64,000 nt of DNA from Synechococcus sp. (GCA_047284725.1 JBJBEO010000001.1:1784203-1848202), one strand, 5' to 3'; shown: positions 19,473 through 36,402, numbered from the stretch's first letter. Made by a program: numbers and translations. The notes: generated by a model not told the origin, from the letters alone.

Positions 19473-19631
19473 GCTGCTTTTCCTGACTGACTCTATTCAG
19501 CCAACACAGCCGCAACTCAACTGTACGCATTGATACAAAACCGACGTTCATGCGCCAAGGTCCCCAGCCGTTCAGACCCGCGATCCAGTTGGATTAACTT
19601 GACGAAATCAGAAACCGCGACAGGCATCTCG

Positions 19632-20375
19632 TTGGTTCTTCATCGCTTCAAACGCTGTCATTGCCACACCCAGCAGCGGGGGTTCAGCACCCAGCAGGTC
19701 CTCCTCATTCTGCTGGTGGTGTTTCCCCTGGGATGCATCGCCCTGGGACTGATCCTCAACGGGGTGATGCAACGCAGCAAGACGTCAGAAGCGACGGAAC
19801 CAGAACCCCCATCAACCATCGCTGCCAAACCGGAACCGATGGAAGCCGCCGGTGATCCGGATCCAAGCCAGGTTGAAACAGCCCAGCAGGACGCTCCACA
19901 GGCAGCACCAGCAGCGAGCGACACAGTGGAGCTCGGGGCCTCCGTGACGGGTGTTCCAATCCGGTTGCTGATGCAAAGCATCAACACGCGCGACAGGCAA
20001 TTCCGGGACTTTCAATATCAGCTCGGCAGCAGCACCGTTGCGGCGATGGCCAACTGCACCGATCAAAGCTGGACGAGTTACCCGGAGCGCCAGCTGAATC
20101 GGCCCCAGTCCCCCGCGACGGAGCGCATGCTCAGGCTGGTGTGCGGGACAACCAACGAGGCCGACCCGCCAGCCCCATTACCAGACCCTGCTTTTCCCGG
20201 GGTGGCGATCGTGTTCGACCCACCCAGCAATGTGCGCAGGAGCCCAGGCGGAGCCTTTCTTTGCACCGTCAACAACCCGCGCAGCATCCGCGTCGGTCAG
20301 GCCCAGGGTGAGTGGTACCCCACCTCGGCGTGTGGACCCCAGGGGTTCATCCATCGCAGCCAGGTGCGCTTCTGA
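19632..20375 (+). CDS. Membrane-anchored protein with pilin-like N-terminus and C-terminal SH3-like domain
   Basis: RGFSTQQVLLILLVVFPLG; DPPSNVRRSPGG...GEWY...GFIHRSQV; start uncertain (ORF open from 19530). Confidence 0.75.
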   Translation: MVLHRFKRCHCHTQQRGFSTQQVLLILLVVFPLGCIALGLILNGVMQRSKTSEATEPEPPSTIAAKPEPMEAAGDPDPSQVETAQQDAPQAAPAASDTVELGASVTGVPIRLLMQSINTRDRQFRDFQYQLGSSTVAAMANCTDQSWTSYPERQLNRPQSPATERMLRLVCGTTNEADPPAPLPDPAFPGVAIVFDPPSNVRRSPGGAFLCTVNNPRSIRVGQAQGEWYPTSACGPQGFIHRSQVRF

Positions 20376-20401
20376 TCAACACCTCCCCTGCAGGGCTTCC
20401 T

Positions 20402-20968
20402 ATGCCGATGCTCCCTCTCCGCCACCCCTCCACAGCAGGCTTCTCCAATCAACAGGCCCTTCTCGCCCTGCTGGTTGTCTTTCCGCTCGGAATGATGTGC
20501 ATCGGGATGGTGGTCACCCTGGCCCTGCGATCCACCTCCGCCTCCACAGCCCAGGCACCGGCGCCAGCAATCCAGACACCAGCCCCGAGTGCATCTCCAG
20601 CATCCGAGCAGCCAGAGACCGTCAGACCGGCCCCTGCCCCATCGACGCCCGTCAAACCCCTGGCGAATCCGGGATCGGCCAATCCAACTCCCAGCAGCGC
20701 CAACACCTGCTGGTTCCAGATGCAACGGGGAGGACCTCTGATCGGTGATCGTTGCAGCGTGACGCTACGGGTCAATGTCAACGGAGACCGGGTCTTTGAT
20801 GTGATTGAGCCTTCGGGCTTGAAGCGATCCGTGGTGCTGTGGGAGAACGATGACGTGGAAGTGTTCCTGAACGAACAGCGCTACACGGGAAGCTGGCTTG
20901 TGGATGATGAGGGCGATGTTCGCGTCAGCCTGGCCGGAGGCACCTTTGCATTTACGCCTCCTCGCTAG
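20402..20968 (+). CDS. Membrane-anchored protein with pilin-like N-terminus and Pro-rich linker
   Basis: AGFSNQQALLALLVVFPLG; beta-rich C-terminal domain with a Cys pair. Confidence 0.75.
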   Translation: MPMLPLRHPSTAGFSNQQALLALLVVFPLGMMCIGMVVTLALRSTSASTAQAPAPAIQTPAPSASPASEQPETVRPAPAPSTPVKPLANPGSANPTPSSANTCWFQMQRGGPLIGDRCSVTLRVNVNGDRVFDVIEPSGLKRSVVLWENDDVEVFLNEQRYTGSWLVDDEGDVRVSLAGGTFAFTPPR

Positions 20969-21002
20969 AGCGTCAGGCTCATGCCGTCTGGAGAGCGACC
21001 GT

Positions 21003-21557
21003 TCAGCAATCCTCCTCACCCTGCTGCCTGATCAGCAGGATGAATCCAGACAGAATCGACACCAGGGCCAGACACGCCACCACTGCGATCACGGGAGTCG
21101 CCGCAGGGGTTCCTGAGGCTGGAGACAACGCAGGCTCTTGCGGTGGCCGAGGCAACGACTGGTTGTCAGCCGGCAAGGGCTCAGCCATGGGCTGGCCTGG
21201 CTGCATCCGGACATAACGCACCAAGCCATGAAGCCCCACCAACACGGACTGATCAGACGACACATCCAGAATCAGTCCGGAGCCTGTTGATTGAGCCACA
21301 AAGTGAATTCTGTTCTGCTCAAGAAACTCCCAGCGTGCATCAGAGCTGACACCAAACATCGTCACGGTCGCGCGACCGTCAGGCTGAAGATAAAGACAGG
21401 ACATCTGACTCTCAGACTGATCAGATCCGAGCCCCTCCAAACAGTACTTGCCATGTAGCCGCGACCCTGGCGACGCAAAACAAGCCTGAAGCAGAACACA
21501 CCCAACGAAACAAGCCGCGACACGACTGCGCAGAGAAGACAGCCGTCGTTGGCTCAT
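21003..21557 (-). CDS. Exported protein with Pro-rich linker and C-terminal TM anchor
   Basis: N-terminal signal (possible lipobox LQAC); C-terminal hydrophobic helix. Confidence 0.6.
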   Translation of the reverse strand: MSQRRLSSLRSRVAACFVGCVLLQACFASPGSRLHGKYCLEGLGSDQSESQMSCLYLQPDGRATVTMFGVSSDARWEFLEQNRIHFVAQSTGSGLILDVSSDQSVLVGLHGLVRYVRMQPGQPMAEPLPADNQSLPRPPQEPALSPASGTPAATPVIAVVACLALVSILSGFILLIRQQGEEDC

Positions 21558-21573
21558 GATGCGGCTTGCAACA

Positions 21574-22458
21574 TCACAAGCCGGCCTGTCCATTGTCGAA
21601 GCGCTCAAAACCACAGAGACGCGCCGCCGCTTGATACTCAGGGTCGAAGCGATCCCAACGGAAACTGCGGGGATCGTAGCGACTATGGCTGCGGTCAATC
21701 GCCTGATGGGTCGTCAGGCGTGTCAGAGGAATTCCGAACTTGGCCTGCCACAGCAACACCTGGCCAGCCAGATTGCGGTATTGCGCAGAGGTGTAGCCCG
21801 AGTGGCCACTGCGATCATCCCGACCATCAACTGGCGAAACAAGACTGATATGCAAAGCGATGTTATTCACCGAGCCAACACTGGACGCTTTGGTGCGCTG
21901 GGTGACATCACCAAACGCCGACATGCCAGCACCGTAGGCGCGCTTTTCATCGGGGACGATGCGCAACCGTGCGCCATCGCGTGCAATCAACATGTGATAA
22001 CTGGCCTGATCAGCATCGTTGGGATGCGGCGTCTGAAAGAAGGCCACCGTGGCTTTCTCACTGATCACGGTTTCATGCAGCACGATCAGCAACGGCTCAG
22101 CCTGAAGAGCACGGTTCCAGGCATCGACAACTTTGCGTTCGCCGAAATTCGTGGCATCGGCCAGTTGATCCATCTCTGCTGTCAGCGCGAGCGTCTTGGC
22201 ACAGCTGGCGATCTCCTGCGCCGACGCAGGAGGCAAACCAGCATCGGCCAGTGTCATCACAGGCGGAAGGGTCAGACCCTGTTTCGGGCTTTGCCCCTTG
22301 CCCCGGACTGAGCCGTCGTCGTTGGGATTGGTATGCCCGCTGATGGAGGGATGCTGCGGATCACCCGCCCCTTGCCAGGGGAAACGAAACGGCAACGACG
22401 TGCAGCCGCTGAGCAGGATCAGAGCTGCGGCAACAGACAACGAACGAACAAGAGTCAT
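21574..22458 (-). CDS. N-acetylmuramoyl-L-alanine amidase (Amidase_2), lipoprotein
   Basis: Lipobox LSGC; IVLHET, ASYHMLI, RAYGAG, SVNN, TTH, RYDP. Confidence 0.85.
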   Translation of the reverse strand: MTLVRSLSVAAALILLSGCTSLPFRFPWQGAGDPQHPSISGHTNPNDDGSVRGKGQSPKQGLTLPPVMTLADAGLPPASAQEIASCAKTLALTAEMDQLADATNFGERKVVDAWNRALQAEPLLIVLHETVISEKATVAFFQTPHPNDADQASYHMLIARDGARLRIVPDEKRAYGAGMSAFGDVTQRTKASSVGSVNNIALHISLVSPVDGRDDRSGHSGYTSAQYRNLAGQVLLWQAKFGIPLTRLTTHQAIDRSHSRYDPRSFRWDRFDPEYQAAARLCGFERFDNGQAGL

Positions 22459-23118
22459 TTACTGCTTGCGATAGTCCCAGATTTTCCAGCGACCAGACTC
22501 TTCTTTGAGGGTGTAAATCCAGTCTTTGGTACTTGAGGACGTTTCACTGCCCTTGGGCGAGTGCAGATTGGAAACCTCGGTCACCGACACGACAATCGAA
22601 GGCATCGAAGGGGACGGCAAATAGCGGATCACCCGATTCACCTTGATAGTGGAATAGCTGTAATAGCTGTTGTTGTTCTTGAGCCACTGGATGGATCCAT
22701 CCGGCTTGGTTAAATCGGTCCATAAAGGTCCAGCCGCCACCACCTGATCAGCCAGATCGGTGTTGAAAGGCGGAGCGAAGATCTGAGATTTCACCGTCAA
22801 CCACTCCTCCACGATGGCTCTGGCTTGCTCCTGGGTGAGACCAGATGGCTGAGGAGCCGGCTGCTTCTGCGGGGGCAGCGGCTGAATCGTGGTGGATCGC
22901 TCAGAGGACTCCGGTCGCTCCACCGGCTGGGGAGCTGGAGCAGGGGCGGGGGCCGTCGCCACCGTGCTCTGACGCTGCAGCAGCACGATCACCAGCCCCA
23001 GCGCCACCAGGCCGAGGGGAAACAGCAGCAGCAGAACCAGCAGGGCTTGCTGGTTACTGAATCCTTGATCACCGCGCAGCCGATGGCGGAAGCGGCTGAT
23101 TGGCGTTGAGCGACTCAC
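22459..23118 (-). CDS. Membrane-anchored protein with pilin-like N-terminus and ARC6/IMS (DUF4101-like) domain
   Basis: QGFSNQQALLVLLLLFPLG; A..IVEEWLTVKSQIFAPPF..WLKNNNSYYSY..VTE..Y.L..GRWKIWDY. Confidence 0.75.
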   Translation of the reverse strand: MSRSTPISRFRHRLRGDQGFSNQQALLVLLLLFPLGLVALGLVIVLLQRQSTVATAPAPAPAPQPVERPESSERSTTIQPLPPQKQPAPQPSGLTQEQARAIVEEWLTVKSQIFAPPFNTDLADQVVAAGPLWTDLTKPDGSIQWLKNNNSYYSYSTIKVNRVIRYLPSPSMPSIVVSVTEVSNLHSPKGSETSSSTKDWIYTLKEESGRWKIWDYRKQ

Positions 23119-23241
23119 AGAATGACCTCCGGGAACAACGTGGTCAAAGCAGCTGCACCGTGCCTGTCGTGCCACACCCAAAGCAAGGCCATTGGACAAA
23201 CGGTCACAATGATGCACTGATCAGGATCGGAACCAGGGTGA

Positions 23242-24132
23242 TTGAAGCAGGTGCCATCAACCAGAGCCGGCGTGTCTCCTGATCCAAAGCGTCAACCCGG
23301 ACCATGGCCAGCACTGGGTTCCTGGGCTGCGATTCAGCTCCTGCATCAGGCTCCAGCCCAGGCAGCATGGGACCTGCGCCACGCAGCGGCTGTTGAAGAT
23401 CTCCTGAACGACTACATCAAGACGCTGCCTGAGGGAGCCAGCATGCCGGCGCCGAGGCTCTTCCTCTACAAAGGCACTGCGTTTTCAAGGGCCTGCCCAG
23501 GATCCGGCATCGAGGCCCCCGCCTACTGCCCTGGGGATCACACCGTTTATCTGGAAATGGGGCTGGGCGATCAAGTGGCCACCATGTACGGAGATTTCGG
23601 AGCCCTGTCGATCCTGTCGCATGAATTCGGCCACGCCTACATGAGTCAACGCCAGCTGCATCCCCCGGGCAAACAGGGAGAGCTGGCCGCTGATGGTTTC
23701 GCCGGAGGGTTCGCCCGTTATGTCGAGCAACTGGGGCTTCTGGAAGCCGGTGACATCGATGAAGCCCGCGCCACCTTTGCCGCCGTTGGCGACTATCAGG
23801 TGTATCACCATGATCACCACGGCACCCCCAACGAGCGCCGTCAGGCCTTTGAGGCCGGCTACCAGCAAGGGTTCCGTCTGCCGGGGGAGCCACCCACAGC
23901 TCAACCGCCCACAGTTCAATCACCAACCGCTCAACCACCGAGAGCACAACCCCAGCAACCCGCGCCCCAACCCGACCAACCGGCGATCGTTCCCTCTCCG
24001 ATTCCTGGTCAGGCCAACCAGGTCAGCGCCGTTGGTCCCGTCCTTGGCCTCGGCCTCGGCGTTGTTTTCATCGCCTTGATGTTGATCGCCGTTGTCACGC
24101 TGATCAACAGGGCCCGTGATGAAGAGTTTTAA
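23242..24132 (+). CDS. Neutral zinc metallopeptidase (YpfJ-like) with C-terminal TM
   Basis: AYCPGDHTVY, HEFGH, ELAADGFAG, HGT..R..AF..G. Confidence 0.85.
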   Translation: MKQVPSTRAGVSPDPKRQPGPWPALGSWAAIQLLHQAPAQAAWDLRHAAAVEDLLNDYIKTLPEGASMPAPRLFLYKGTAFSRACPGSGIEAPAYCPGDHTVYLEMGLGDQVATMYGDFGALSILSHEFGHAYMSQRQLHPPGKQGELAADGFAGGFARYVEQLGLLEAGDIDEARATFAAVGDYQVYHHDHHGTPNERRQAFEAGYQQGFRLPGEPPTAQPPTVQSPTAQPPRAQPQQPAPQPDQPAIVPSPIPGQANQVSAVGPVLGLGLGVVFIALMLIAVVTLINRARDEEF

Positions 24133-24637
24133 AACCACAGTTCCAACCCCCACAGGGTTCAGCAACCAGCACGCCCTGCTGGTGCTGTTGATTCTGTTTC
24201 CTCTGGGCTTGATGGCCATCGGCAGCCTCGCCGTTCTGTGGTTGAAACAGCCGTCCGTTGTTGCTGACACCCCTTCCAAACCAACCGCCACCGAACCCAA
24301 CCAACCTCAGGCCAGGACCAATGCCAATTCCAATTCCAACGATCACAACAAGACCACCCCAGTCCCTGATCTGATCGCGTTGCAGGAGCAACGCCTGAAT
24401 GACCTTGCCGATGCCATTTTCTGGCGGCGCCATCCATCCCTGCAAGGCGTCAAATTGAGTGGTCAAACAGGCGACTTAGCCCGTGAATGGAGCCGGATCC
24501 GCCACTGCGACGCCATCGTTGATGATCGTTTTTATCGCCTCCATCCACACATGCGCGGACGCACGATCCAGCCGAACCAGACGGAGCTGGCGGCGAGCTG
24601 GCAACGCTTGCGCGATCAAGTCGAGGGTTGCTCCTGA
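24119..24637 (+). CDS. Membrane-anchored protein with pilin-like N-terminus and duplicated helical repeat
   Basis: TGFSNQHALLVLLILFPLG; internal repeat DAIFWRRHPSLQG..LAREW / DDRFYRLHPHMRG..LAASW. Confidence 0.75.
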   Translation: MKSFKTTVPTPTGFSNQHALLVLLILFPLGLMAIGSLAVLWLKQPSVVADTPSKPTATEPNQPQARTNANSNSNDHNKTTPVPDLIALQEQRLNDLADAIFWRRHPSLQGVKLSGQTGDLAREWSRIRHCDAIVDDRFYRLHPHMRGRTIQPNQTELAASWQRLRDQVEGCS

Positions 24638-25551
24638 ACGCTCGCACGCGTCGAGCGCGGCCGCAGAACCACGACACCGATCGATGCAGGAACCGAGCGC
24701 ACATACGCAGCAAACGGATGCGAGCGGATCACCCCCTTCCCAGGCACGGCATGGATGGCTGACACGCCATCGGCATCACGCACCACAACACCCATATGCG
24801 TGACATCAAGCCCAGGAACGGACGTGGCAATCGCAAACAGATCACCATTCTGGAAGGAACGACTCGCCAGTTCCAGACCATCATTGGGGAGATAGATCTG
24901 TTCAATCGTCAGACGACGCTCCTTCTCTTGAATGCAGCGGAGCGTTGAAGGCGTCTGCAACGGGGAATAGAGAGACGGATGGTCCGACATATAGGTGAGA
25001 TTCAAGACGCGTCGCTGATGACCGGCCACCTCATCCGTGACATCCTCAACCCATCCCTGATCAGCGGCCGATGCCGCCCAGCTCTGGAAATAATGATGAC
25101 GCGAGCAGTAATCAACACGGCCCGCCTCGTATCGCATGGTTTGCGTTGTCGCCACAAACGATGGCCAATCGGATGACACAGCCAGCGCCAGAAGTTGCTC
25201 AACCAACAACATGCAATCAAAACGTGTCAGATCAACGCGCAATCGCTCTGCGCCCCCTTCATCCAGGGAAAAGGCGACATAGGGAGTGCCGAGAAACGAC
25301 TGAGCCAGGGAAGCGACGGTCTGAGCAGGCTCGAGCTCACGCATCCATCCCTTGATCTCGGAATACAACTCCTCACTGCCGGGAGCGACCTGCACCTGCG
25401 GATCCGACGCAGGACGATCCGACGCCAGGGCCGATGGCCCGATCGCACGCTGACGCTGCGGGTTGAACGGCTGATCGGCGGCAAGGCCACCTGCCGCCGA
25501 AAGAGAGACCACCAAACCCGCAAGCCCCATCCACCGGCGTGCACGCATCAC
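24616..25551 (-). CDS. AmiA-like NlpC/P60-fold amidase (DUF1460)
   Basis: FLGTPY, FDCMLLVE, RY..G.V.YCSRHHYF, GLDVTHMG, IHA. Confidence 0.87.
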   Translation of the reverse strand: MMRARRWMGLAGLVVSLSAAGGLAADQPFNPQRQRAIGPSALASDRPASDPQVQVAPGSEELYSEIKGWMRELEPAQTVASLAQSFLGTPYVAFSLDEGGAERLRVDLTRFDCMLLVEQLLALAVSSDWPSFVATTQTMRYEAGRVDYCSRHHYFQSWAASAADQGWVEDVTDEVAGHQRRVLNLTYMSDHPSLYSPLQTPSTLRCIQEKERRLTIEQIYLPNDGLELASRSFQNGDLFAIATSVPGLDVTHMGVVVRDADGVSAIHAVPGKGVIRSHPFAAYVRSVPASIGVVVLRPRSTRASVQEQPST

Positions 25552-25626
25552 CCTTGATCAACCACAGACAACCTGGCATGAGCAACCACGCCGCGTAGGC
25601 TGAAATCGGCGATCACAGCAACTGGA

Positions 25627-26919
25627 TTGACTCCGAAATCGTTCTGCCTATCGCTGCGATGCGGACTCTCAACGACGGCCATCGCCATGGTGATCAGCGG
25701 CTGCGCCTCCGCACAACTGCCCAGTTGCGTGATCGGCCTGGAGGCACCCACCCCAGAGCAACGTCAGCGCTGGGAGGCTGCTCCTCAGGTCACCAGCCTC
25801 GACCTGGGCATTGATGGCAGCAGTTCCATGTTGGGGCTCACAGGCTCAGCCGACAGCGCACGGGCCTGGAAGGGCCTGCTCAAAGGCGTCAGCCTGGGTG
25901 CCGCGGCCAACGGGCTCAGCCTGAAGACCCAACGCATCGGCAGCGGTCGCGGCAGCACGGTCTCCAGCCCGATGCAAGCCGCCGACGCCTGTTTCTTTCA
26001 GGGGTGTGGTGCCTTTGCAGCGGTGACCTCCAGCCTTGAATCGCTCTGGAGCAGCCCAGGCCTCAGCCAGGGCAAGCCACCTCTTCGCCTCGCCATCAGC
26101 GATCTGGAGGTGAACGATGGCGACATCGCCAACCTCGTGGGAGCCATCCGACCACATGTGGAGCAGGGAGCCGTGATCGGCGTGCTTGCCGTTCGGCTGC
26201 CATTCGCAGGCAGGGTGTACAACAGCCAGGGCACCGTGATCCACGAGGGCACAGCGGAACGCCCCACCTACCTGCTGGCGACAGGGCCGCGCTCCCAGGT
26301 GCACAACCTGCTCAAAGACGTGAAAACGAAAGCAGCCCTGGCGGGGGTGCCGACAGGCTCCATGCACCTCACCCTGCTGGATGAGCAGGCCAATGCACCC
26401 ACCCTGGTGGCGAAGAGCATCGCGGGCGACAACAGCGGTTACGGCCAGCCGTTGCGTCTCGGAACAACCACCTTCAGCCCGAGTGGCAATGGAAAGTACC
26501 AATTCGCAAGGCTGTTTGAGGGAGCCAATCGTGTCGTTCTCAGCAGCGGAGTGGGCGTCAGCGCCCAAGCGCCGCTGCTGCCCGACCTCGGCCTGATCAA
26601 TGTGCTGCCGGTGGCCTTGCCTGGCACCTCAAGCCACAGCAGCGGCGTGGATGTGGATGGATTCCAGGTGAACGGCACTGACTTGAGCGTGGGCTTGGGG
26701 ATCGCCGACACCACCATCGGCGGGGCCGTGCGGGCGACGGTTGCTCGCGGCCAACTTCCGGAAAGCTGGTGGGTGCGTTGGAATCGCCTGACCCCCAAAG
26801 CAGAGGACGCACGGAATCAAACTGACGGATTATTGCTGTTGCTCACAAGTTTGAGCCAGTTGATGGTTCAAAATGGCACCACTCCAGCCGCGTCTCTCTG
26901 CCTGGCTTTCAGTCGGTAA
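25627..26919 (+). CDS. vWA-like lipoprotein
   Basis: Lipobox ISGC; LGIDGSSSM (DxSxS MIDAS-like) and downstream AISDL. Confidence 0.7.
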   Translation: MTPKSFCLSLRCGLSTTAIAMVISGCASAQLPSCVIGLEAPTPEQRQRWEAAPQVTSLDLGIDGSSSMLGLTGSADSARAWKGLLKGVSLGAAANGLSLKTQRIGSGRGSTVSSPMQAADACFFQGCGAFAAVTSSLESLWSSPGLSQGKPPLRLAISDLEVNDGDIANLVGAIRPHVEQGAVIGVLAVRLPFAGRVYNSQGTVIHEGTAERPTYLLATGPRSQVHNLLKDVKTKAALAGVPTGSMHLTLLDEQANAPTLVAKSIAGDNSGYGQPLRLGTTTFSPSGNGKYQFARLFEGANRVVLSSGVGVSAQAPLLPDLGLINVLPVALPGTSSHSSGVDVDGFQVNGTDLSVGLGIADTTIGGAVRATVARGQLPESWWVRWNRLTPKAEDARNQTDGLLLLLTSLSQLMVQNGTTPAASLCLAFSR

Positions 26920-26934
26920 TTCCTGACCAGAACG

Positions 26935-27471
26935 ATGCGAATTCTGCAGTTCATCACCCTTGCCCTGTCGGTTGCTCTTGGCATGGTGTGGATTTTTATT
27001 GTTCAAAACTCGATCTTTCTGCATGTTTTGGCTGGTCCCTTGAGTGGACCTGGCATGAATGTTGTTGACTTCCTGCAGATCGGCAGCAGTCCCGCCTTCA
27101 CCGTGTTCTGGGCTGGCTGCATCTCAGCGCTGCTGATCTGGTTTGTGATCACGCTGAGCTCGCGCCCCCGCAGCTCCGCCCAGACCCGGGGCATGCAACC
27201 GATGTGGTGGCTGGCAGCGGCCCTGCTCACCCTGTTCGGCTGGCTGTGCCTGGGCTGGTTCACAGCATTCAGCTGGACCATGAGTGGTGTCAGCCCGATC
27301 GCAGGCTCTGCTCAACTCTTTTTTCCACTTCCCCCGGGTGGGTGGCTGATGCTGATGGGATTTGTGATGCTCGATGTGATCCTGCTGTTCTGGTTACCCA
27401 CCCTGGTCGCGTCGCCTCGCACCTACCGCTTCGTGGTGCCCGGAGCCGTCACCCTTCTGGGCAGTCGCTGA
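26935..27471 (+). CDS. 4-TM membrane protein
   Basis: Four hydrophobic helices; tightly linked within the operon. Confidence 0.8.
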   Translation: MRILQFITLALSVALGMVWIFIVQNSIFLHVLAGPLSGPGMNVVDFLQIGSSPAFTVFWAGCISALLIWFVITLSSRPRSSAQTRGMQPMWWLAAALLTLFGWLCLGWFTAFSWTMSGVSPIAGSAQLFFPLPPGGWLMLMGFVMLDVILLFWLPTLVASPRTYRFVVPGAVTLLGSR

Positions 27472-27472
27472 G

Positions 27473-28972
27473 ATGAAACAGATTTTCGCCATCGGCGTCG
27501 GCGGCACCGGCGCTAAATGCATCGAGGCGCTGGTGCATCTCCATGCCTGCGGATTGCTCACCGATCAAGACGGCAACCCAGCCCGATTGGGGGTGTTTCT
27601 GGTGGAGCCGGATCAGCAGAGTGCTCTGCTGCTCCGTGCCCAGACAGCGATCAACCGCTACGGCTCCCTGCGCCGGGCCGTGGGACGTCAAAGCGACCGG
27701 TTTGCCCGCGCCGAACTGCGGGATTACGGCCAGTGGAGTCCACTGAGCACAGCCTCCGGTGCCATCAGCCTCGATCAGGTCTTCCCCAAGGCGGTGCTGC
27801 GCACCCAGGCGCCAGGGGTGGCGGCTTTGTTTGATTGCCTCTTCCCCCCCGAGGAGCAGAGTGCCGACCTGGAAGTGGGGTTCCGCGGCCGACCACCGAT
27901 CGGATCGGCAGTGATGAGCCGCATCAGCCTCGAGCAGGAGGCTCAGGTGGGCCAATGGCAGCAGATGCTGAGCGACATCCAGACCGCCGCCGGCAGCGGC
28001 GAAGCACCGGTGGTGCATCTCTTCGGCAGTGTGTTCGGCGGCACCGGCGCCTCCGGGGTCCCCACCCTCGGCCAGCTGCTCAAAAACTGGCTGAAGCGAC
28101 AGGGGCTCACCAGCGTCCAGGTGCAGGCGTCACTGCTGCTGCCCTACTTCGATTTCGAGGGGATGGCCGACGACGACACCGGTGTGCACGCCGAATCACG
28201 CAACTTCCAGCTCAACACGGACGCCGCCCTGCAGTACCTCCGCACCAGCGGTCGCGCCTGCTTCGATCGGGTCTATCTGGTGGGGAGCGACATCAAGGCG
28301 CGCTACGGCTTCAGCATCGGTGGCACGTCCCAATCGAATGCCGCCCACATGGTGGAACTGCTGGCGGCCCTCGGGGTGTGTCATCCCGGCACGACAAGCA
28401 ATGGCTATGCCCATGTGCTCAGCCGGACGGAGCAGCAGAGCATGGGCTGGGAAGACCTGCCCGACAACGAGATGGTGGGCGATGCCCTGGCCCGCGGCGC
28501 TCGCTTCGCCGTGGCATGGCGCAACAACATCACCCGTGAGATCAATGAGGCCCAGAAGGTGCCGATGCGCACCTTCCTCAGTGGTGCGCCATGGGCGCGG
28601 CGCTTCTTCCATCCTTCCGGGTCGGGCACCGACCGAGGCATGCGGCCTGGCATCCGTGACAAGGAACAGCTCACGGTGCAGAACGCCATTGATCAGTACT
28701 GCGACACACTGCTGCAGTGGCTCAACCAGGTTTCGAGCAACCTCGGCAGTGGATTCCGCCAGGAGCTGTTCACCGCCTCACTGCTAAGGCCCAGTGACCG
28801 CTTCGAGAACAACCTCAGCCGCGTGGTGAAAGGCAAGGCGAGGCCCCGCCGCCCCGAAGCCTCCGACACGGTGGAAGCGATCAAGGTGCGGATGGATCAG
28901 CTCAAGAGTGATGCCATCTCCCATCGCGGCATGGCCGGCCTTGCCGATTGTCTCTGGTCTCTTGTGGTCTGA
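27473..28972 (+). CDS. Tubulin/FtsZ-like GTPase (Tubulin_2-like)
   Basis: IGVGGTG, GFRGRPPIG, GSVFGGTGASG signature, LLPYF. Confidence 0.87.
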   Translation: MKQIFAIGVGGTGAKCIEALVHLHACGLLTDQDGNPARLGVFLVEPDQQSALLLRAQTAINRYGSLRRAVGRQSDRFARAELRDYGQWSPLSTASGAISLDQVFPKAVLRTQAPGVAALFDCLFPPEEQSADLEVGFRGRPPIGSAVMSRISLEQEAQVGQWQQMLSDIQTAAGSGEAPVVHLFGSVFGGTGASGVPTLGQLLKNWLKRQGLTSVQVQASLLLPYFDFEGMADDDTGVHAESRNFQLNTDAALQYLRTSGRACFDRVYLVGSDIKARYGFSIGGTSQSNAAHMVELLAALGVCHPGTTSNGYAHVLSRTEQQSMGWEDLPDNEMVGDALARGARFAVAWRNNITREINEAQKVPMRTFLSGAPWARRFFHPSGSGTDRGMRPGIRDKEQLTVQNAIDQYCDTLLQWLNQVSSNLGSGFRQELFTASLLRPSDRFENNLSRVVKGKARPRRPEASDTVEAIKVRMDQLKSDAISHRGMAGLADCLWSLVV

Positions 28973-29016
28973 ACCCACAACAGTCGTTCGATCACTCCCC
29001 AGCACCCTCTCAAGCC

Positions 29017-32000
29017 ATGACCTCCTCTCCCTCGCAGGACATCGTTCAGATTCCCTGGTTCCCGAAAACCGATCCACCCCTCGGAGGCGGAGCCCAGGCT
29101 GGGGAATGGCAGGGGCGTGACCAGCAGAGCCTCGGCACGATCGCCAAGAGCCTCGTCTACGAGGTGGCGACATCACGGGTGAATTCACTGCCATCGCCCT
29201 GGTCACGGGCACTGCAGTTCGAGCAGGCGGTGCTGAACTCGCGCTACCCCACGCGCGATTCCCTGCTGGAGGAGCTGTTTGGGGGCATGGCCTGTCTCGG
29301 CCTCTGGGAGATGTTTGGCCTGCGCCTCGATGCCCAGCGGGTCTCCCTGCTGGACCATGCCGACCTGCAGGACGATGCGGTCGGGCCGTTCTCCCGCAGC
29401 CTGGCCGCCTCGCTCCCTGATGGACGCAACGCCCTGTCACGCCAACCGGAGGGACGGAACCCCTGGGAAGTGGTGTATGTGTTCACCCTGCAGGGAAGCG
29501 TGGTGGGCTTCAGCTCCCCCAGCACGCTGTTCTGCCCGGCCGTTCACCTGCCTCAGCCGATTCAGGGGATGGGCTGGACCAACAGCGGACGCTTCACCTC
29601 CCCCGTGGATTTTCTGGGTGCTCCCCAGCGCCAGGCCCTGGGGGATTGGTTCAGCCACGTGAAAAACGGCATGCTCAATGCGAGCGATCTGCACAGTCAG
29701 ACCAGCGCTGGACAGATGGCCGAAGTGCTGGATCTGTTCATTCACCGGCTCACCGCGGGCCGGCTCGGCACGCCCACCCTGTCCGACACCGGACGGGTCG
29801 CCAATCTTCCCTCCAATCCGGTGGCCCTGTCGCTGCTGGCCAGGCCGGCCAAAGGCGGCGTCAGCGCCAGCCAGGCAACGCTGGAACTGGGCGATCGGCT
29901 CCAGGCACCGCTCGGTGACACCCCCGCCAGCCAGCCGGTGGTGCTGGTGGACCCCGACATGCCCAACAAGCTTGGGGTGAGCGCGGCCGACATCTGCCTC
30001 TACAAATCGGCGACGTTGGAGTCGATCGGCTTCGATCCAGGCCAGCTCGATCGCCAGTACGGCAAAGAGATCACGGTGCTCACCCCTGATCAGATCTTTC
30101 TGGATGAGCTCTATCTGGTCGCAGGAGAACAAGCGCTTCAGAACTCCTGGCTTCCCAGCCGGCTGGAGGGCGTGCCGCGGGTGAACGGCGAGGCTGTCAC
30201 CCCCCTGCTCCCCCTGCGTCCGGAGATCCGCCGACTGTTCAGCAGCCGTGAGCTCAGGGAGCGCTGCCAGCTGCGGGTGATGCAATCCAGCGTCAGCAAT
30301 GAGGTGGAAGTGAGGCTCAGCCTTCCCCTGCAAGGCCAGCGTGAGGGCTATTCGCTGGCTCGCTCCTACCCCCTGAAGGAGCAGAACCTGGTGGCGGAAG
30401 ACCTGCCCGTGATCACCCTCTGGCCCTACGTCAGCGATGAACGCTGGCGCCTCTATTACCTGTTCTGCGAAGACAGTCCGTCGGCGCTGACCGTGGATGG
30501 CTTCAGCGATTACGACCGCAAGCTGGGCCGAGATAACCAGCAGGTGGTGAAGTATTTCACCACCCAGCACTTCCCCGACCTGGTGCGCCTGAGCGAGCGC
30601 GGTCAGGATCGAGGCCTGCTGCCGGTGACCCCGCCGGCCTCGTGCCCGGATGTGGGCACCCAGTGGCAGGTCGGCATCGACTTCGGCACCTCCTTCACCA
30701 ACTTCTTCATCGATGAGGGGGGCGGGCCGGAGCGCCGGCACCTCGAGACACGGGTGATTTCCCTCACCCTGTCGCAGAAGGAAGAACGTCAGCGACTGCT
30801 CAACCAGTACTTCGTTCCCGAGGAAATGCTGCCCAACACCGACAGGGCCAGCAATCCCCCCACCGCCACGGCCATCAGCCTGCGCGGCTGGCAGGAAGTG
30901 CTCGGTCAGGTGCCTGAGCTCTTCCATGAGGCCCGGCTGCGGGTGCCCAGCCCCGGTGAATTCGGTGGGGCTGAATTACGCACGGGCTTCAAATGGGAGC
31001 AGATGCAGTACCAGAAACCCTTCCTTAAAGAGGTGGCGCTGCTGGTCAGTGCCAACGCCGCTGCCAACGGTGCCCAGGAACTGCAGTGGTCGGTGTCGTA
31101 TCCCAGCGCCTTCTCCCCCAATGAAGTGGCCCGCTACCGGCGGGTGTGGGTCGAGCTCTGCGATGACCTCAACCAACTCACCGGCCTGCGCCATGCCCTC
31201 AATGCCAAAGCCGGAGAGGGGGGACTGCAAACCGAGGCTGTGGCCTTCGCCAGCTACTTCGGCAACTTCCAGAACCGCCAGATGGTGCACACCTCCTGCC
31301 TCGACGTGGGTGGAGGCACCACCGACATCTCGATCTGGCAAGACAACCGACTGATCCATCAGGTGTCTGTGCCGTTTGCAGGGCGCGACATCAGTTCGCA
31401 GCTGCTGCGCCGCAAACCGTCGTTCCTCAAGTCGCTGTTTCCACCGAGCCTCACCGCCGACATCAGCGACGACGAAGCCAAAGCCCGTCAGGACCGCAAC
31501 TTCACCAGCCGCCTCGACAACATCATGCGCTACGGCTCCGATGAGCTGCTCGCCGGCCGGCTCGACATGCTGGTGAATCAGGAGTCGACCCTTCAGGAAC
31601 CGCTGCAGCAATTCCTCAGTCTGCTGTCGGTGAGTTTTGCGGGGATCTACCACTACCTGGGTCAGGTGCAGCAGGTGCTGCGCGACGAAGGCAAACTGAC
31701 CCGTCGCACGCCGACGCCGGTCTACATCGGTGGCAATGGCGGACGTTTGATCAACTGGATTGATGCCAGTTCTCGTTTCCAGAAGGGGGGCGATCCCGAC
31801 CGCCTGATGGAGCGGATGCAGATCAAGGCCTCCGGATGCGACGCCGGCAACGCCTGCACCACCCTGTCGGATGCCTACAAGGATGAAACCGCCTGCGGCC
31901 TGATCAGTTCGGGCGTGAATCTGATCGGCGACTTTGATCCCCGTGACGACGTCATGGTCTGCGGGGCCAGTCTGGTGGTGAATGACCTGCACTTCGCGTG

Positions 32001-32313
32001 CGGTGATCGCGTGCAGCTTCCCCACACGCTGTCGCGAATTGATCGCTATGAGCTGCCCGATCTCGATGCGATCCGCACCTTTGTGGAGCACTACGACGAC
32101 AGCATCGCCGAACTGCGCATTGGAAGCCTGCTGCCGATTGGGGAGCTGTGCGACCTCGACACCCTCTGGGCTGAAGTGGAAACGGAAGTGCGCTCCCTCT
32201 GCCTGGCCAAGGTGGGGCAGGACGCCAAGGACCTCGAACCCGAACCCGGATTCATCCTCGGATTGCGGGCACTCACCAACACGCTCGGCCGGCTCTGGGC
32301 CGAACGCTTCTGA
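29017..32313 (+). CDS. Large protein with C-terminal actin/Hsp70-fold ATPase domain
   Basis: VGIDFGTSFT (phosphate 1), SYPSAFS, TEAVA (connect 1), DVGGGTTDIS (phosphate 2), IGGNGGR (adenosine); N-terminal SLPSPWSRA. Confidence 0.87.
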   Translation: MTSSPSQDIVQIPWFPKTDPPLGGGAQAGEWQGRDQQSLGTIAKSLVYEVATSRVNSLPSPWSRALQFEQAVLNSRYPTRDSLLEELFGGMACLGLWEMFGLRLDAQRVSLLDHADLQDDAVGPFSRSLAASLPDGRNALSRQPEGRNPWEVVYVFTLQGSVVGFSSPSTLFCPAVHLPQPIQGMGWTNSGRFTSPVDFLGAPQRQALGDWFSHVKNGMLNASDLHSQTSAGQMAEVLDLFIHRLTAGRLGTPTLSDTGRVANLPSNPVALSLLARPAKGGVSASQATLELGDRLQAPLGDTPASQPVVLVDPDMPNKLGVSAADICLYKSATLESIGFDPGQLDRQYGKEITVLTPDQIFLDELYLVAGEQALQNSWLPSRLEGVPRVNGEAVTPLLPLRPEIRRLFSSRELRERCQLRVMQSSVSNEVEVRLSLPLQGQREGYSLARSYPLKEQNLVAEDLPVITLWPYVSDERWRLYYLFCEDSPSALTVDGFSDYDRKLGRDNQQVVKYFTTQHFPDLVRLSERGQDRGLLPVTPPASCPDVGTQWQVGIDFGTSFTNFFIDEGGGPERRHLETRVISLTLSQKEERQRLLNQYFVPEEMLPNTDRASNPPTATAISLRGWQEVLGQVPELFHEARLRVPSPGEFGGAELRTGFKWEQMQYQKPFLKEVALLVSANAAANGAQELQWSVSYPSAFSPNEVARYRRVWVELCDDLNQLTGLRHALNAKAGEGGLQTEAVAFASYFGNFQNRQMVHTSCLDVGGGTTDISIWQDNRLIHQVSVPFAGRDISSQLLRRKPSFLKSLFPPSLTADISDDEAKARQDRNFTSRLDNIMRYGSDELLAGRLDMLVNQESTLQEPLQQFLSLLSVSFAGIYHYLGQVQQVLRDEGKLTRRTPTPVYIGGNGGRLINWIDASSRFQKGGDPDRLMERMQIKASGCDAGNACTTLSDAYKDETACGLISSGVNLIGDFDPRDDVMVCGASLVVNDLHFACGDRVQLPHTLSRIDRYELPDLDAIRTFVEHYDDSIAELRIGSLLPIGELCDLDTLWAEVETEVRSLCLAKVGQDAKDLEPEPGFILGLRALTNTLGRLWAERF

Positions 32314-32321
32314 GCAGAACC

Positions 32322-33257
32322 ATGATCACTCCATCACGCAAACTGACGCTGTCGGCACTGGCGCTCACCGGCCTGATTGGTGCGTTGTCGTGCTCCGCCG
32401 TCGTTCATGCCGAACCGCCGACGGCCACAGGAACACCAAACCAGGAGACAGCAGCCCCCGCAGAAGTCTCGCCCCAGCAACCGAGCCAACAAGAAGGCCA
32501 GCAACATCAGTCTCCACGCATGGACGCACAACCGACACCTCGGTCGGTTCCATTTGTCGGAACAGGTGGGATCCTTCTCCTCGCTGGAGGAGGGTTGGTG
32601 GTGGCCCTCGGCAGCCTGGCCACGGGGATCACCGCCCACCTGCAGCTGCGGCGCAGCCATCAGCGCCTGCGCCAGCAATCCGACACGCTGCAGACCCGGC
32701 TCAGCGAACTGGAGCTGCAAGTGGAGCAAGACCGGATTGCCCAGCTGGCGCGACGGACACCCCGCGCCGCCACACCCATGGCTCCACGCCCGGCACCTTT
32801 TGCCGCGAAACCGGTGCCTGCCGCCGCGCCACCACCACCGGCGCCACCGGCACCACAACCCGCGGTTCCAGCACCGGCTCCAGTGCCGGTCAGCAAGGCC
32901 GGCTTGATCGCAGCCCTGAACAGCGGCGATCGCCAGCCCCTGCGTGAGGCCGCCACCGCCGAACTGAACATCACCAGCGACTCGGAAAACGCCATCGCCA
33001 CCGGCAGAGCCGTGTCGACCGAACTGGAGGCGGTGGCCGGGGGGGGAAGCTACTGGTTGATTGCCATCGACCAGCACCATTGGCTGTTTCCAACGGATCG
33101 CACCCTGAAGGGGTTTGCCGCTGCGCAGCCCTCGAAAGGCCTGTTTCACTACGAGAAGCAGACCATCGCCCAACCGCAGCTGCTGGAGCCTGCACAGCTC
33201 AACCCCAATGGTGACCGCTGGATCGTGACCTCCATGGGCCGCATCGGCACACCCTGA
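32322..33257 (+). CDS. Membrane protein: signal, TM, coiled coil, Pro-rich linker, beta domain
   Basis: Architecture read from sequence; last gene of the operon. Confidence 0.8.
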   Translation: MITPSRKLTLSALALTGLIGALSCSAVVHAEPPTATGTPNQETAAPAEVSPQQPSQQEGQQHQSPRMDAQPTPRSVPFVGTGGILLLAGGGLVVALGSLATGITAHLQLRRSHQRLRQQSDTLQTRLSELELQVEQDRIAQLARRTPRAATPMAPRPAPFAAKPVPAAAPPPPAPPAPQPAVPAPAPVPVSKAGLIAALNSGDRQPLREAATAELNITSDSENAIATGRAVSTELEAVAGGGSYWLIAIDQHHWLFPTDRTLKGFAAAQPSKGLFHYEKQTIAQPQLLEPAQLNPNGDRWIVTSMGRIGTP

Positions 33258-33282
33258 AGGCGGGGCGGGCCGGGGCGGAGCG

Positions 33283-33987
33283 TCAGTCCAAGGCCTGAAG
33301 CCGCCGTTCCAGTGCTCGCAGCCGGGTTTCCAGGCTGTGCTGCAGTGGATCGGCAAGCAGGCCGATGCTGCCTTTCTGCTCGAGGTACCAACGACGACCG
33401 TGTTCAACCACGGTGGCGGTGCCGGCAGCCAGCAATTCCATCTCAGCTGGTAGCGGTGCCTCACAGGCGAGCTCAAACAAGCGCCCAAGGCTCTCCACCT
33501 GAGTCTGGCGTTGAAGCATTCCCGGTCGGGGCAGGAGAACCGAGCTGCCATCCTGCAGTTCCACCATCCATGTGGTGCCCTGAGCGAACACTTCGAGTTC
33601 GATCTCAGCGATCGCTCCACTCAAGGTGCGGCCACTCACACTGCAAGGACGGGCAAAGGGCTGCAGCAGGGCAGGGTTGTTGCGATAAACGTCCAGCAAC
33701 CCCTCCAGGGGAAGATTGAGCGCAGGGATGAGGGCTTCAGCAGAGTCTGGCCGCACCGGCAGCTCAGTCTCACGACGTGGCGCATCAGCACCAATCAGCT
33801 TTTGATCCCGCAGGATCTGCAACTCTTGTTCAATGCTTTCCAGGCGATCAGAAAGATCGGAAACGTCTTGCTTGACGCTCTCAAAGCTGCGAGAAATATT
33901 GTCATTCGTTTCAACGAAATGATCACTCAACTGCCGAACACTCTTCAGCAGAAACTTCACTGATTCAACAAGTTTTCGATCATCCAT
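33283..33987 (-). CDS. Coiled-coil protein with C-terminal domain resembling that of 32322-33257
   Basis: N-terminal heptads; ELE..G..W..L.P..LF..W...G.IG pattern shared. Confidence 0.78.
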   Translation of the reverse strand: MDDRKLVESVKFLLKSVRQLSDHFVETNDNISRSFESVKQDVSDLSDRLESIEQELQILRDQKLIGADAPRRETELPVRPDSAEALIPALNLPLEGLLDVYRNNPALLQPFARPCSVSGRTLSGAIAEIELEVFAQGTTWMVELQDGSSVLLPRPGMLQRQTQVESLGRLFELACEAPLPAEMELLAAGTATVVEHGRRWYLEQKGSIGLLADPLQHSLETRLRALERRLQALD

Positions 33988-34002
33988 CGATCCGTCTCCT
34001 GA

Positions 34003-34368
34003 TTATTGCTGGGTGCGCTTCACTGACTCCTGCGCTGCCCGCAGCAGCTGATCGAGCTCACCATCATCACTGGGCTCAGAGGGGGAAGATCCCCGCAGCG
34101 AAGCGGCACGATGCCCTGGTTCGTCAACGTCATCAAAGGAAGGCTGATCGGCAGGCAACAGGCCCCGATTCGCCTCCCTGACGGCATCAGGCAAGAGCAC
34201 AAGATCCAGCAACTGACCGAATCCGCAAAGGCCAAACGTGAAGAGCATCACCACGCCATACCCCACCTGCCCGAGATACATGCGTTGCACACCACAAACG
34301 CCAACAAACGAGAGGCACCAGAGCAGGTAGCCCAGGGATAACTCTTTTTGCTCTCGAGAGGGCTCCAA
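34003..34368 (-). CDS. TM2/NINE domain protein
   Basis: GYLLW...GVCGVQRMYLGQ...G..L.TFGLCGFGQLLDL.L.P. Confidence 0.88.
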   Translation of the reverse strand: MEPSREQKELSLGYLLWCLSFVGVCGVQRMYLGQVGYGVVMLFTFGLCGFGQLLDLVLLPDAVREANRGLLPADQPSFDDVDEPGHRAASLRGSSPSEPSDDGELDQLLRAAQESVKRTQQ

Positions 34369-34445
34369 TTAACGGCATCAATTTCCGATGTATTCTATCG
34401 CAAATCAACCAAAGCCCCCGAGCAGGCTCACGTCACACCACACCC

Positions 34446-35636
34446 ATGCTGGAGAGCTGGTCGGTCGTCATCAACGTGCTTTTGGTGGCATGGTCAGTGC
34501 GGACGTTGATCATCCTTCAACTGGCATTTCGGAACAGAACAGGCGACATCAAGTACAGCAAGGGCGAGCCAACCACAGCCACCAGATCCGACGATGCTCC
34601 GCTGGTCAGCATCATCATCCCTGCCTTCAACGAAGCAGCATCAATCAGCAAGACCGTGTTGTCTTGCCTTCAATCAATGGATGCCAACAAGGAACTCATC
34701 GTTGTTGACGATGGCTCAACCGACGGCACGCGAGCCGTTGCATTCAGCCTGCAACGCCAGCATCCAGAGCACAGGATTCAGGTCATCACCAGCGACCGCA
34801 ATCAAGGCAAGGCCAATGCTCTCAACCTTGGCCTGAACCGGGCCTCCGGTGACATCATCGTGACCGTTGATGCCGACACCCAATTCGAATCGGCCGACAC
34901 CCTCACAGCGTTAGTGCAGCCACTGATCACACAACCAGAGATTGGGGCAACCACAGCCAACCTGAAAATCGCCAACCCAACAACAATGCTGGGCACATTT
35001 CAGGCGATTGAATACGCGAAAATCATTCAGACCCACAAACGCGCGCAAAGCCAGACGCATGCGATTCTGATTCTCCCCGGCGCCTTGAGCTCCTTCAGGC
35101 TACACCTGCTTCGGGCGATCGGAGGGTTCTCCAAGGCGACGCTGGCGGAAGATGCCGATGCCACCATGGCCCTGCTGAAGCAGGGTCATCACGCCTGCCT
35201 CCAAACCCGCGCCTGCGGATTCACCACCGTGCCAACATCCGTTGCGGGCTTCATCAAACAGCGCATCCGCTGGCGTGTTGGTCAATGGCAATGCCTGTGG
35301 AAGCATCGTGCCCTTGCCAGACACTCCTGGGCGACGGGATTTTTCTATCTGGATGTTGTTGCCACGAATGGCATCACCGCTGCAACACCGGCCTTTGTTG
35401 TGATCTCACTCTGGCAAATCATCCATGCAGGCGATGGGCAATCCTGCATCTGGGCCCTCAGCGGATTCGTGGCCACCGACATCCTGGTGACAACCGCAAC
35501 CGCACAACTCGACAGAACCTTCAGGCCCAGCCCGAAGCACTATGCCAACAGCCTGCTCTTCTTTGTGGCCATCAACCCTGTGATCACCTGGCTCTGCCTG
35601 TTCAAATTCTTCACCCAGCGGCCCATTCACTGGTAA
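34446..35636 (+). CDS. Processive GT2 glycosyltransferase (PgaC/IcaA/cellulose-synthase-like)
   Basis: IIPAFNE, VDDGSTD, GKANALN, DAD, AED, QRIRW; C-terminal TMs. Confidence 0.88.
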   Translation: MLESWSVVINVLLVAWSVRTLIILQLAFRNRTGDIKYSKGEPTTATRSDDAPLVSIIIPAFNEAASISKTVLSCLQSMDANKELIVVDDGSTDGTRAVAFSLQRQHPEHRIQVITSDRNQGKANALNLGLNRASGDIIVTVDADTQFESADTLTALVQPLITQPEIGATTANLKIANPTTMLGTFQAIEYAKIIQTHKRAQSQTHAILILPGALSSFRLHLLRAIGGFSKATLAEDADATMALLKQGHHACLQTRACGFTTVPTSVAGFIKQRIRWRVGQWQCLWKHRALARHSWATGFFYLDVVATNGITAATPAFVVISLWQIIHAGDGQSCIWALSGFVATDILVTTATAQLDRTFRPSPKHYANSLLFFVAINPVITWLCLFKFFTQRPIHW

Positions 35637-35685
35637 AAGCTCCGAAAGTGATCACGCCACCGTCACAAGATGCCCGAAGGCACCA

Positions 35686-36365: not shown

Positions 36366-36402
36366 GTGGCAGAACCACCCCAGCCGCCACTGCCGCGCCG
36401 GC

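Follow-up and report, generated by a model that had tools for sequence, protein, structure and literature searches.

In 2010 Makarova and Koonin described an FtsZ-like family to which Tubulin_2 (PF13809) corresponds in Pfam (PMC9871819, PMC2875224). According to the available part of PMC2875224, operons of this FtsZl1 type hold genes for vWA, membrane and OmpA-family proteins, a function in membrane remodelling was predicted for them computationally, and the majority FtsZl1 architecture comprises ~1000 aa, with a 340-aa coiled coil and an alpha-helical C-terminal domain. An operon of this kind was analysed in a stretch of 64,000 nt from Synechococcus sp. (GCA_047284725.1 JBJBEO010000001.1:1784203-1848202), here called the window, within the block at 19632-35636. 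Its five genes encode a vWA lipoprotein, a small membrane protein, a tubulin-like GTPase, a very large protein referred to as the giant, and a coiled-coil protein, and genes for cell wall and envelope proteins lie around it. The block is in our view rather probably a mosaic in a hypervariable slot, made up of resident envelope genes, an accessory cassette and a strain-specific gene for a glycosyltransferase of family 2 (GT2), with the cassette as a variant, in cyanobacteria, of the FtsZl1-vWA systems predicted before.

The locus resembles FtsZl1-vWA systems, as far as the part of PMC2875224 at hand describes them, in its T1 and T4 glycine motifs (defined there as GGxG and GGGTG[ST]G-like), in a vWA protein with an intact metal-site motif, in its membrane proteins, in the OmpA-family partners of relatives and in being additional to the canonical division genes. 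It differs from that description in its short GTPase (499 aa), which leaves no room for a long coiled-coil/helical tail, in the lack of a separate P-loop GTPase or protein kinase in the window, and in an obligate partner of ~1100 aa with an Hsp70/actin fold (75/80 loci). Kaur et al. 2020 (PMC7159879, in the portion available) class tubulin+vWA+HSP70 modules with DO-GTPases as conflict systems dependent on nucleoside triphosphates (NTP). The GAP1-N2 DO-GTPase systems in that portion share with our locus the tubulin, vWA and Hsp70 families, a sporadic distribution and, in relatives of the locus, variable neighbours of the repeat, protease and FGE-sulfatase type, but neither a DO-GTPase nor FNIII was found in the window with Pfam, Tubulin_2 being the only GTPase family in Pfam and NCBIfam scans of the block. 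The same portion places the tubulin theme in firmicutes and actinobacteria, apart from HSP70, whereas both occur here in one cyanobacterial operon.

With Zorya the common ground is a ZorA-/ZorB-like pair beside the core in 13 related loci; anchoring in the envelope and contact with peptidoglycan are likewise common to both. PADLOC detected no ZorAB-like genes in the window, and no ZorC/D/E-type effector was seen. The ZorAB-like matches could reflect a generic MotAB/ExbB likeness. ZipN/ARC6 proteins have a long cytoplasmic N-terminal region, J-like and FtsZ-binding, and measure ~700-800 aa. The IMS protein of the window carries, as does ZipN/Ftn2/ARC6, a C-terminal IMS domain (PF13355) behind a membrane anchor, but its 252 aa hold the anchor, a linker and the IMS domain only, and IMS proteins of 727-840 aa are found elsewhere in the genomes. 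The 727-aa protein of the window's own genome (C1:707183-707518, outside the window) is presumably the true ZipN.

Delimitation of the co-inherited cassette

Gene presence was compared in 36 genomes of the same genus (congeners) and in 24 genomes from other cyanobacterial families; genomes are labelled G (G000 being that of the window), operon-bearing loci L and window genes w. The tubulin-like gene was found in 5/36 congeners (G007, G008, G026, G027 and G031) and in 2/24 genomes of the other families, and the giant gene had an identical distribution, including the same two distant genomes. The gene at 33283 and the TM2 gene were each present in exactly the five operon-bearing congeners and were always adjacent. 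An ortholog of the Zn-peptidase (at least 61% identity) occurred in G007, G008, G027 and G031 (4/36) but in 0/31 congeners without the operon; the G026 contig stops where this gene would lie.

The wall genes showed another pattern. Island-type Amidase_2 (counted at 60% identity or more) and DUF1460 were each present in 15/36 congeners, four with and 11 without the operon, and the IMS ortholog was present in G008, G027 and G031 as well as in the operon-less G011 and G015. G007 carries the operon and gave no match to island Amidase_2, IMS or DUF1460. The GT2 gene was seen only in three strains (G000 and, at 46% identity, G026 and G027) and was not seen at the loci of G007, G008 and G031. All these genes lie in a slot between core genes common to the compared genomes (w13086...w19257 on the left, w36156...w40018 on the right). 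Operon-less slots hold no cassette gene between w19257 and w36156, and their content varies: Amidase_2 and IMS only (G015), a 20312-like gene with Amidase_2 and IMS (G011), a 19530-like gene with Amidase_2 (G023), Amidase_2 with DUF1460 (G002, G017 and G024) or DUF1460 (G005, G030 and G034). Amidase_2, IMS, Zn-peptidase and operon are contiguous in G008, G027 and G031.

Because synteny and phyletic pattern split the wall genes from the operon, the limits of the cassette were set at 23242-34368, and this ~11-kb cassette is the co-inherited unit. Its members would be the Zn-peptidase, the vWA lipoprotein, the membrane protein, the tubulin-like GTPase, the giant, two coiled-coil adaptors and the TM2 protein. 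The resident part would consist of the four GFS(N/T)QQ-anchored proteins, the IMS->Amidase_2 pair and DUF1460, which occur with or without the operon, and the GT2 gene would be a third, strain-specific part. An earlier note, drawn up from the sequence of the window, had read the whole block as one division-like envelope-remodelling island and had proposed gain and loss as a unit as a test. For about half of the block this test fails, as the figures for Amidase_2, DUF1460 and IMS indicate: the peptidase, 33283 and TM2 genes travel with the operon, the amidases, IMS and GT2 do not. The amidases are indeed found in operon-less strains, a case that the note had itself considered, and the peptidase is not.

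Sequence divergence also separates the components. Among operon-bearing congeners, identity was 84-91% for the tubulin-like protein and 77-90% for the giant, versus 42-63% for the vWA protein, 41-62% for gene 5, 37-58% for TM2 and, in two comparisons, 45-55% and 42-54% for DUF1460; divergence is thus much quicker in exported components than in the NTPases of the cytoplasm. In Logan, contigs of runs with and without a metatranscriptome label covered 19000-37000 as scattered pieces of 150-480 nt at low depth, on operon and flanks alike; such pieces give no expression level, strand or co-expression, and one joint (19756->32827) is unreliable, with 20 letters on one side.

Proteins of the operon

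The product of operon gene 1 had no Pfam match and was modelled with a predicted local distance difference test (pLDDT) of 93.7. The top 50 VIA rows were all vWA domains (Z 5.5-7.0) and the top Foldseek match was BatB (probability 0.97); a profile search of PDB sequences with the vWA alignment gave no match. In its DGSSS motif, of the metal ion-dependent adhesion site (MIDAS) type, D63 and S67 do not vary over 53 homologs, and conservation of G64 and M68 is at least 90%. The identity of this protein as a vWA lipoprotein had been missed by the earlier note.

The tubulin/actin nature of the operon, which that note had proposed, was upheld for both partners. Tubulin_2 was matched above the Pfam cut-off by gene 3, and PF13809 is precomputed on nearly all homologs listed. 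Residues G10, G11 and G13 (GGxG) and G189-G190-T191-G192-A193-x-G195 are invariant in 54 sequences, and the 55 homologs measure 451-559 aa. The giant was modelled with a pLDDT of 85.3, and its residues ~572-1121 matched Hsp70 nucleotide-binding domains (NBD), MreB and BeeR; for this C-terminal half Foldseek returned DnaK, BiP, MreB and BeeR at probability 1.00 (E 2e-8 to 2e-6, best 2.4e-8). The phosphate motifs D578-F-G580-x-S582 and D786-x-G788...D793 are invariant. With a two-lobed modelled fold and both the phosphate-1 and phosphate-2 motifs, the giant is by structure prediction a member of the Hsp70/actin (ASKHA) superfamily. Profile matches were weaker: Pfam FtsA stayed below threshold (23.2 bits vs cut-off 31.8), Pfam HSP70 (PF00012) was not matched, and a search of PDB sequences with the giant alignment was marginal only (FtsA, E 0.0023). 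The first ~570 residues had no named family in Pfam or the ESM Atlas, where the N-terminal half fell in unnamed clusters at 0.89 or lower, with SrfB as a lead at 0.84. The giant is not a canonical DnaK-type chaperone, where a substrate-binding domain and lid follow the NBD: its NBD-like part is C-terminal, behind this region of ~570 aa.

Gene 5 and the convergent gene at 33283 encode coiled-coil proteins whose ~120-aa C-terminal domain is that of a multi-copy family located after the giant gene in other cyanobacteria. Gene 5 was linked to this downstream 'c1' family by hhalign (probability 96.9, E 1.4e-10), as was the 33283 protein to the downstream coiled-coil family (probability 97.4, E 1.5e-11). 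A direct BLASTP comparison of the two proteins was weak (E 0.078), the common domain being visible by profile-profile comparison only.

Predicted complex of the tubulin-like protein and the giant

Complex prediction with the tubulin-like protein and residues 1-500 of the giant resulted in a median ipSAE of 0.82, while the best of three controls scored 0.00. Among solved complexes 116 of 157 attain 0.82, and among mismatched pairs 2 of 215; these counts apply only roughly here, since own alignments were supplied for the prediction. The runs agreed in at least 90% of contacts, with a partner pLDDT of 83 or more. On the giant side the predicted interface includes a conserved N-terminal stretch (33-89), otherwise disordered, and on the tubulin-like side residues 187-205, spanning the T4 glycine loop. 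The N-terminal half of the giant is thus predicted to bind the tubulin-like GTPase. Since it covers the nucleotide-loop face of this partner in the model, the prediction suggests that the heterodimer is a switch or assembly driven by NTP and not simply a homopolymer or filament.

Related loci and their accessory genes

A wider scan, with one genome per species, retained 80 loci of 532 confirmed stretches; open reading frames (ORFs) were clustered over 81 loci (these 80 and the window), and window-type genes were sought near the operon in the 80 loci by tblastn. The loci were mostly cyanobacterial, spanning many orders, with a few from Acidobacteriota and Nitrospirae. The core was well conserved in the 81 loci (tubulin-like 77, giant 76, small membrane protein 74, vWA 58) and was followed by one to six copies of the coiled-coil family; giant and tubulin-like gene occurred together in 75/80 loci. 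Of the window-type accessory genes, Amidase_2 and the Zn-peptidase were each found near the operon in 4 of the 80 loci, DUF1460 in 2, TM2 in 3, GT2 in 1 and the 33283-type gene in 15. The Zn-peptidase adjoins the operon in L027, L030 and L034, and TM2 genes lie near it in L030 and L041. Flanking ORFs of distant loci were mostly housekeeping genes. No amidase family was detected by Pfam among 300 of the 313 selected flank ORFs (excluding the window, L026, L028, L044, ORFs below 110 aa and more than two members per cluster), the second batch being scanned at E<=1e-8, where weak domains may be missed.

IMS genes recur at these loci. ORFs with an IMS domain were located within 10 kb of the operon in 10/81 loci, as anchor-IMS, kinase-IMS, pentapeptide-IMS or IMS joined to a shared 200-aa N-domain. 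In L098 the vWA and membrane genes are separated by the IMS gene, and in L062 it follows the vWA gene directly. Cyanobacterial genomes held 0-3 IMS matches (41 sampled), and in G000 and the distant G042 the second copy adjoins the operon. In G042 (locus L018) the IMS-like stretch at 17123-17496 is split over two frames, with a 112-aa open frame, and may represent a frameshift or a decaying gene. The coupling of filament NTPases to wall hydrolysis, as proposed earlier, is hereby reduced to a looser envelope link through recurrent IMS genes; hydrolysis is not a general feature of the loci.

ZorA/ZorB-like pairs adjoin the operon in 10 picocyanobacterial and three Acidobacteriota/Nitrospirae loci, with E-values of 3e-13 and 1.3e-7 for ZorA and 6.7e-11 and 1e-17 for ZorB in two representative pairs. 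Among picocyanobacteria the ZorAB-like genes belong to freshwater forms; the marine clade is without them and has TM2 and the Zn-peptidase. At L031:16794-19700 and L102:14702-18122 a ZorA-like, a ZorB-like and one more gene stand directly 3' of the operon. An iSTAND-MoxR-vWA insert, a module of the type known from conflict systems, separates the tubulin-like gene from the giant at L079:11581-15550 and L081:12282-14796, and FGE-sulfatase/TPR, WD40, CHAT and subtilase genes are downstream or neighbouring genes in relatives. At four loci of Microcystaceae type, genes for Uma2 nuclease-like or HEPN/nucleotidyltransferase proteins were located between the tubulin-like gene and the giant (L045:11962-12351, L046:7226-7789, L048:9433-10089 and L049:11495-12586). 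In Nostocales, a class A penicillin-binding protein gene (L069:4808-7096) and a subtilase gene (L066:6104-7615) each lie directly upstream of a divergent vWA gene.

Possible function and alternative explanations

In the mechanism that we propose, the periplasmic vWA lipoprotein would bind a ligand via its metal site, and the membrane proteins would pass this signal on to the heterodimer in the cytoplasm, where the tubulin-like GTPase would have its nucleotide-loop face covered by the N-terminal half of the giant. Outputs may be provided by the coiled-coil adaptors and by the tethered protease. IMS-anchored proteins would be facultative periplasmic partners, and the amidases would not be required parts. 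For the functional class, envelope surveillance or conflict is slightly favoured, at a little under an even chance, over membrane or wall remodelling. A conflict-type context is given by the ZorAB-like, iSTAND-MoxR-vWA, FGE-sulfatase/TPR, WD40 and CHAT neighbours in relatives and by the classification of Kaur et al. A full-text search found no work joining 'tubulin-like', 'vWA' and 'anti-phage'. More specifically, the cassette might be a surveillance system of the abortive-infection type, in which the vWA sensor would switch on the NTPase heterodimer at the inner membrane, which in marine Synechococcus would open the wall at a local site by means of the tethered Zn-protease, the IMS protein and the amidase paired with it, an arm that would replace the freshwater ZorAB-like stator; in this complete form we hold it to be improbable.

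Several observations weigh against the proposed mosaic and its FtsZl1-vWA cassette. PADLOC assigned no family to 16 window proteins, and the window cassette lacks both a ZorAB pair and a P-loop GTPase. The complex score expresses model confidence and is not a measurement, and among the papers listed by a full-text literature search none was an experimental study of the FtsZl1 family. The congeners are kin, so that presence counts are not independent, and strains without the operon could have arisen by partial deletion. L030 and L034 retain the order Amidase_2-IMS-Zn-peptidase-operon despite different outer flanks, and in G042 (38-42% tubulin identity) an IMS-like ORF and Amidase_2 directly precede the vWA gene on one strand, gene orders that may reflect a functional tie to the amidase in some lineages. 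There the IMS->amidase pair may work together with the cassette, yet the cassette does not need the pair and the two are independent.

The conserved gene orders in L030, L034 and G042, together with the contiguity in three congeners, speak for the whole 16-kb block as one machine, in which filament-type NTPases of the cytoplasm would steer the two amidases in hydrolysing peptidoglycan locally, so that a pore, tube or bud is formed. The peptidoglycan-binding OmpA/ZorB-like proteins attached instead in other lineages, and the penicillin-binding protein gene just upstream of the vWA gene in L069, also fit this explanation. We nevertheless regard it as unlikely: 11 of the 15 congeners with island Amidase_2, and as many of the 15 with DUF1460, are operon-less, G007 has the operon with none of the three wall genes, relatives of the amidases are near the operon in 4/80 and 2/80 loci, no amidase family was detected by Pfam among the 300 flank ORFs, GT2 is limited to three strains, and the predicted heterodimer, by covering the nucleotide-loop face, disfavours simple filaments. 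At the other extreme, only the five co-directional genes at 25627-33257 would form a unit, and every flank gene, the peptidase, 33283, TM2 and IMS genes included, would be a chance neighbour at a hot spot of recombination. In line with this, the slot has a strongly mosaic make-up among congeners and distant flanks are mostly housekeeping genes, but this explanation is less probable still. The constantly adjacent 33283 and TM2 genes are confined to operon-bearing congeners, 33283 shares its C-terminal domain with gene 5 and the universal downstream family, the Zn-peptidase ortholog is missing from every operon-less congener, and several distant lineages have IMS genes next to the operon or within it.

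The strongest competitor concerns function: the cassette could be a housekeeping-type device for membrane remodelling or a cytoskeletal role (vesicles, envelope shaping) and not a conflict system. This we consider possible, although doubtful. Such a device would agree with the presence of the operon in many cyanobacterial orders, with the lack of a PADLOC defence family in the core proteins and with the IMS domain, which we take to belong otherwise to the division protein ZipN/ARC6. Membrane remodelling was also what PMC2875224, in its available part, predicted from the vWA, transmembrane and OmpA context. It agrees less well with the patchy distribution (5/36 congeners and 2/24 other genomes), with the position in a hypervariable slot, with a vWA protein at 42-63% identity where the tubulin-like protein is at 84-91%, and with ZorAB-like, iSTAND-MoxR, CHAT and FGE-sulfatase neighbours. 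The mosaic with a co-inherited FtsZl1-vWA cassette, and envelope surveillance or conflict as its slightly favoured class, was retained.

Gene map and resident envelope genes

Genes of the block were assigned from an ORF listing, by gene picking guided by the G+C content of third codon positions (GC3) and by conservation in relatives (Table 1). The families named in the earlier note were recovered by Pfam, namely both amidases, the anchored Zn-peptidase, the ARC6/IMS-like domain, TM2 and GT2, and the distance between the divergent starts of the DUF1460 gene (25551) and operon gene 1 (25627) was measured at 75 bp, as it had stated.

Table 1. Genes of the studied block, in window coordinates.
Position	Strand	Product	Basis or remark
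19530-20375	+	281-aa 'GFSTQQ'-anchored protein, Pro/Ala linker, C-terminal domain possibly SH3b-like	resident variable slot, outside cassette
20312-20968	+	218-aa paralogous 'GFSNQQ'-anchored protein	true start probably near 20400
21574-22458	-	Amidase_2 lipoprotein, island-type paralog, second gene of IMS->amidase pair	Pfam E 1.4e-16
22459-23217	-	'GFSNQQ' anchor and C-terminal ARC6-like_IMS domain, 252 aa	Pfam PF13355 E 1.7e-18; abuts amidase gene
23242-24132	+	membrane-anchored Zn-metallopeptidase (YpfJ-type), left cassette edge	Pfam PF04228 E 4.7e-13
24116-24637	+	173-aa 'GFSNQH'-anchored protein, helical C-terminal domain, no family	
24616-25551	-	exported AmiA-like/DUF1460 amidase-like protein	Pfam E 3.6e-41
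25627-26919	+	operon gene 1: vWA lipoprotein with inserted beta-domain	predicted fold
26935-27471	+	operon gene 2: 178-aa polytopic membrane protein	hydrophobic segments in sequence; kept in 74/81 loci
27473-28972	+	operon gene 3: 499-aa FtsZl1/Tubulin_2-type GTPase	Pfam 31.3 bits vs cut-off 27
28948-32313	+	operon gene 4: 1121-aa giant, Hsp70-NBD/MreB-type C-terminal half	predicted fold; overlaps gene 3 by 25 nt
32322-33257	+	operon gene 5: signal peptide, transmembrane segment, coiled coil, Pro-rich linker, ~120-aa C-terminal domain	topology from sequence
33283-33987	-	convergent 234-aa coiled-coil protein, gene 5-type C-terminal domain, cassette member	hhalign
34003-34368	-	TM2-domain membrane protein, right cassette edge	Pfam E 1e-12
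34446-35636	+	PgaC/NodC-like GT2, strain-variable add-on	Pfam E 2.8e-31

Four proteins (starts 19530, 20312, 22459 and 24116) have in common an N-terminal anchor consisting of the motif G-F-S-[NT]-Q-[QH] and a hydrophobic helix, with motif sites at 19680, 20438, 23064(-) and 24155 of the window. The pattern occurs four times in the entire 2.58-Mb genome, always inside the block. In relatives, copies of the anchor family are also located in the slot, on both sides of the operon (on the right in G027 and L027). This N-terminus resembles a degenerate prepilin-type signal. A canonical class III signal has a G|F-[ST]-L-[IL]-E N-terminus, and the four anchors do not match such a type IV pilin-like signal; no Pfam N_methyl match was obtained either. 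Homologs of the 19530 type were found in the operon-less G023, those of the 20312 type in G008, G031, G026 and the operon-less G011, and those of the 24116-24637 protein in G008, G026, G027 and G031 only. The SH3-like domain claimed earlier, in the 19530-20375 protein, had no Pfam match even at E<=1; SH3b (SH3_3) clusters of the ESM Atlas reached 0.89 and 0.88, under the tool's line of 0.9, and the domain is kept as a lead only.

The Amidase_2 protein bears an LSGC lipobox, read from the sequence, at its N-terminus. A second, core-type Amidase_2 paralog, ~43% identical, is encoded in G000 at C1:1236022-1236618 and is present in nearly all congeners. Besides the Pfam match, the Zn-peptidase shows the motif HEFGH and, at its C-terminus, a hydrophobic anchor. 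The protein at 34446-35636 carries a QRIRW motif, and its best NCBIfam match, PgaC_IcaA, at 187.7 bits is under the equivalog cut-off of 422.3; judged from its sequence it belongs to GT2 generally and fails as a PgaC/IcaA equivalog. A 231-aa ORF at 21003-21698 (-), overlapping the 3' end of the amidase gene, matched no family, nor anything in relatives by tblastn, and is unlikely to be a gene; ~600 bp between 20968 and 21574 are thereby left without assignment. No tRNA gene that could mark an integration site was present in the window. Further downstream, at 48000-57000, the G+C content drops from ~0.62 to ~0.40 across ~9 kb, and this stretch is probably a separate horizontally acquired island.

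Implications

The original observation of this block was largely confirmed, and its reading as a single island was only partly supported. Neighbourhood in a hypervariable slot is not equal to co-inheritance, and in this respect the single-island reading was over-extended. FtsZl1-vWA systems were predicted in 2010, and the literature search found no experimental test of them. The cassette provides a compact and well-delimited cyanobacterial version in a marine picocyanobacterium of culturable type, and close strains without the cassette make natural knock-out comparisons possible. Three new leads emerge for this family: a confidently predicted heterodimer that joins a GTPase of the tubulin family to an ATPase of the Hsp70/actin family, a second use of the IMS domain of ARC6/ZipN, outside division, and alternative peptidoglycan-contacting arms, either ZorAB-like or a peptidase with IMS and TM2 proteins.

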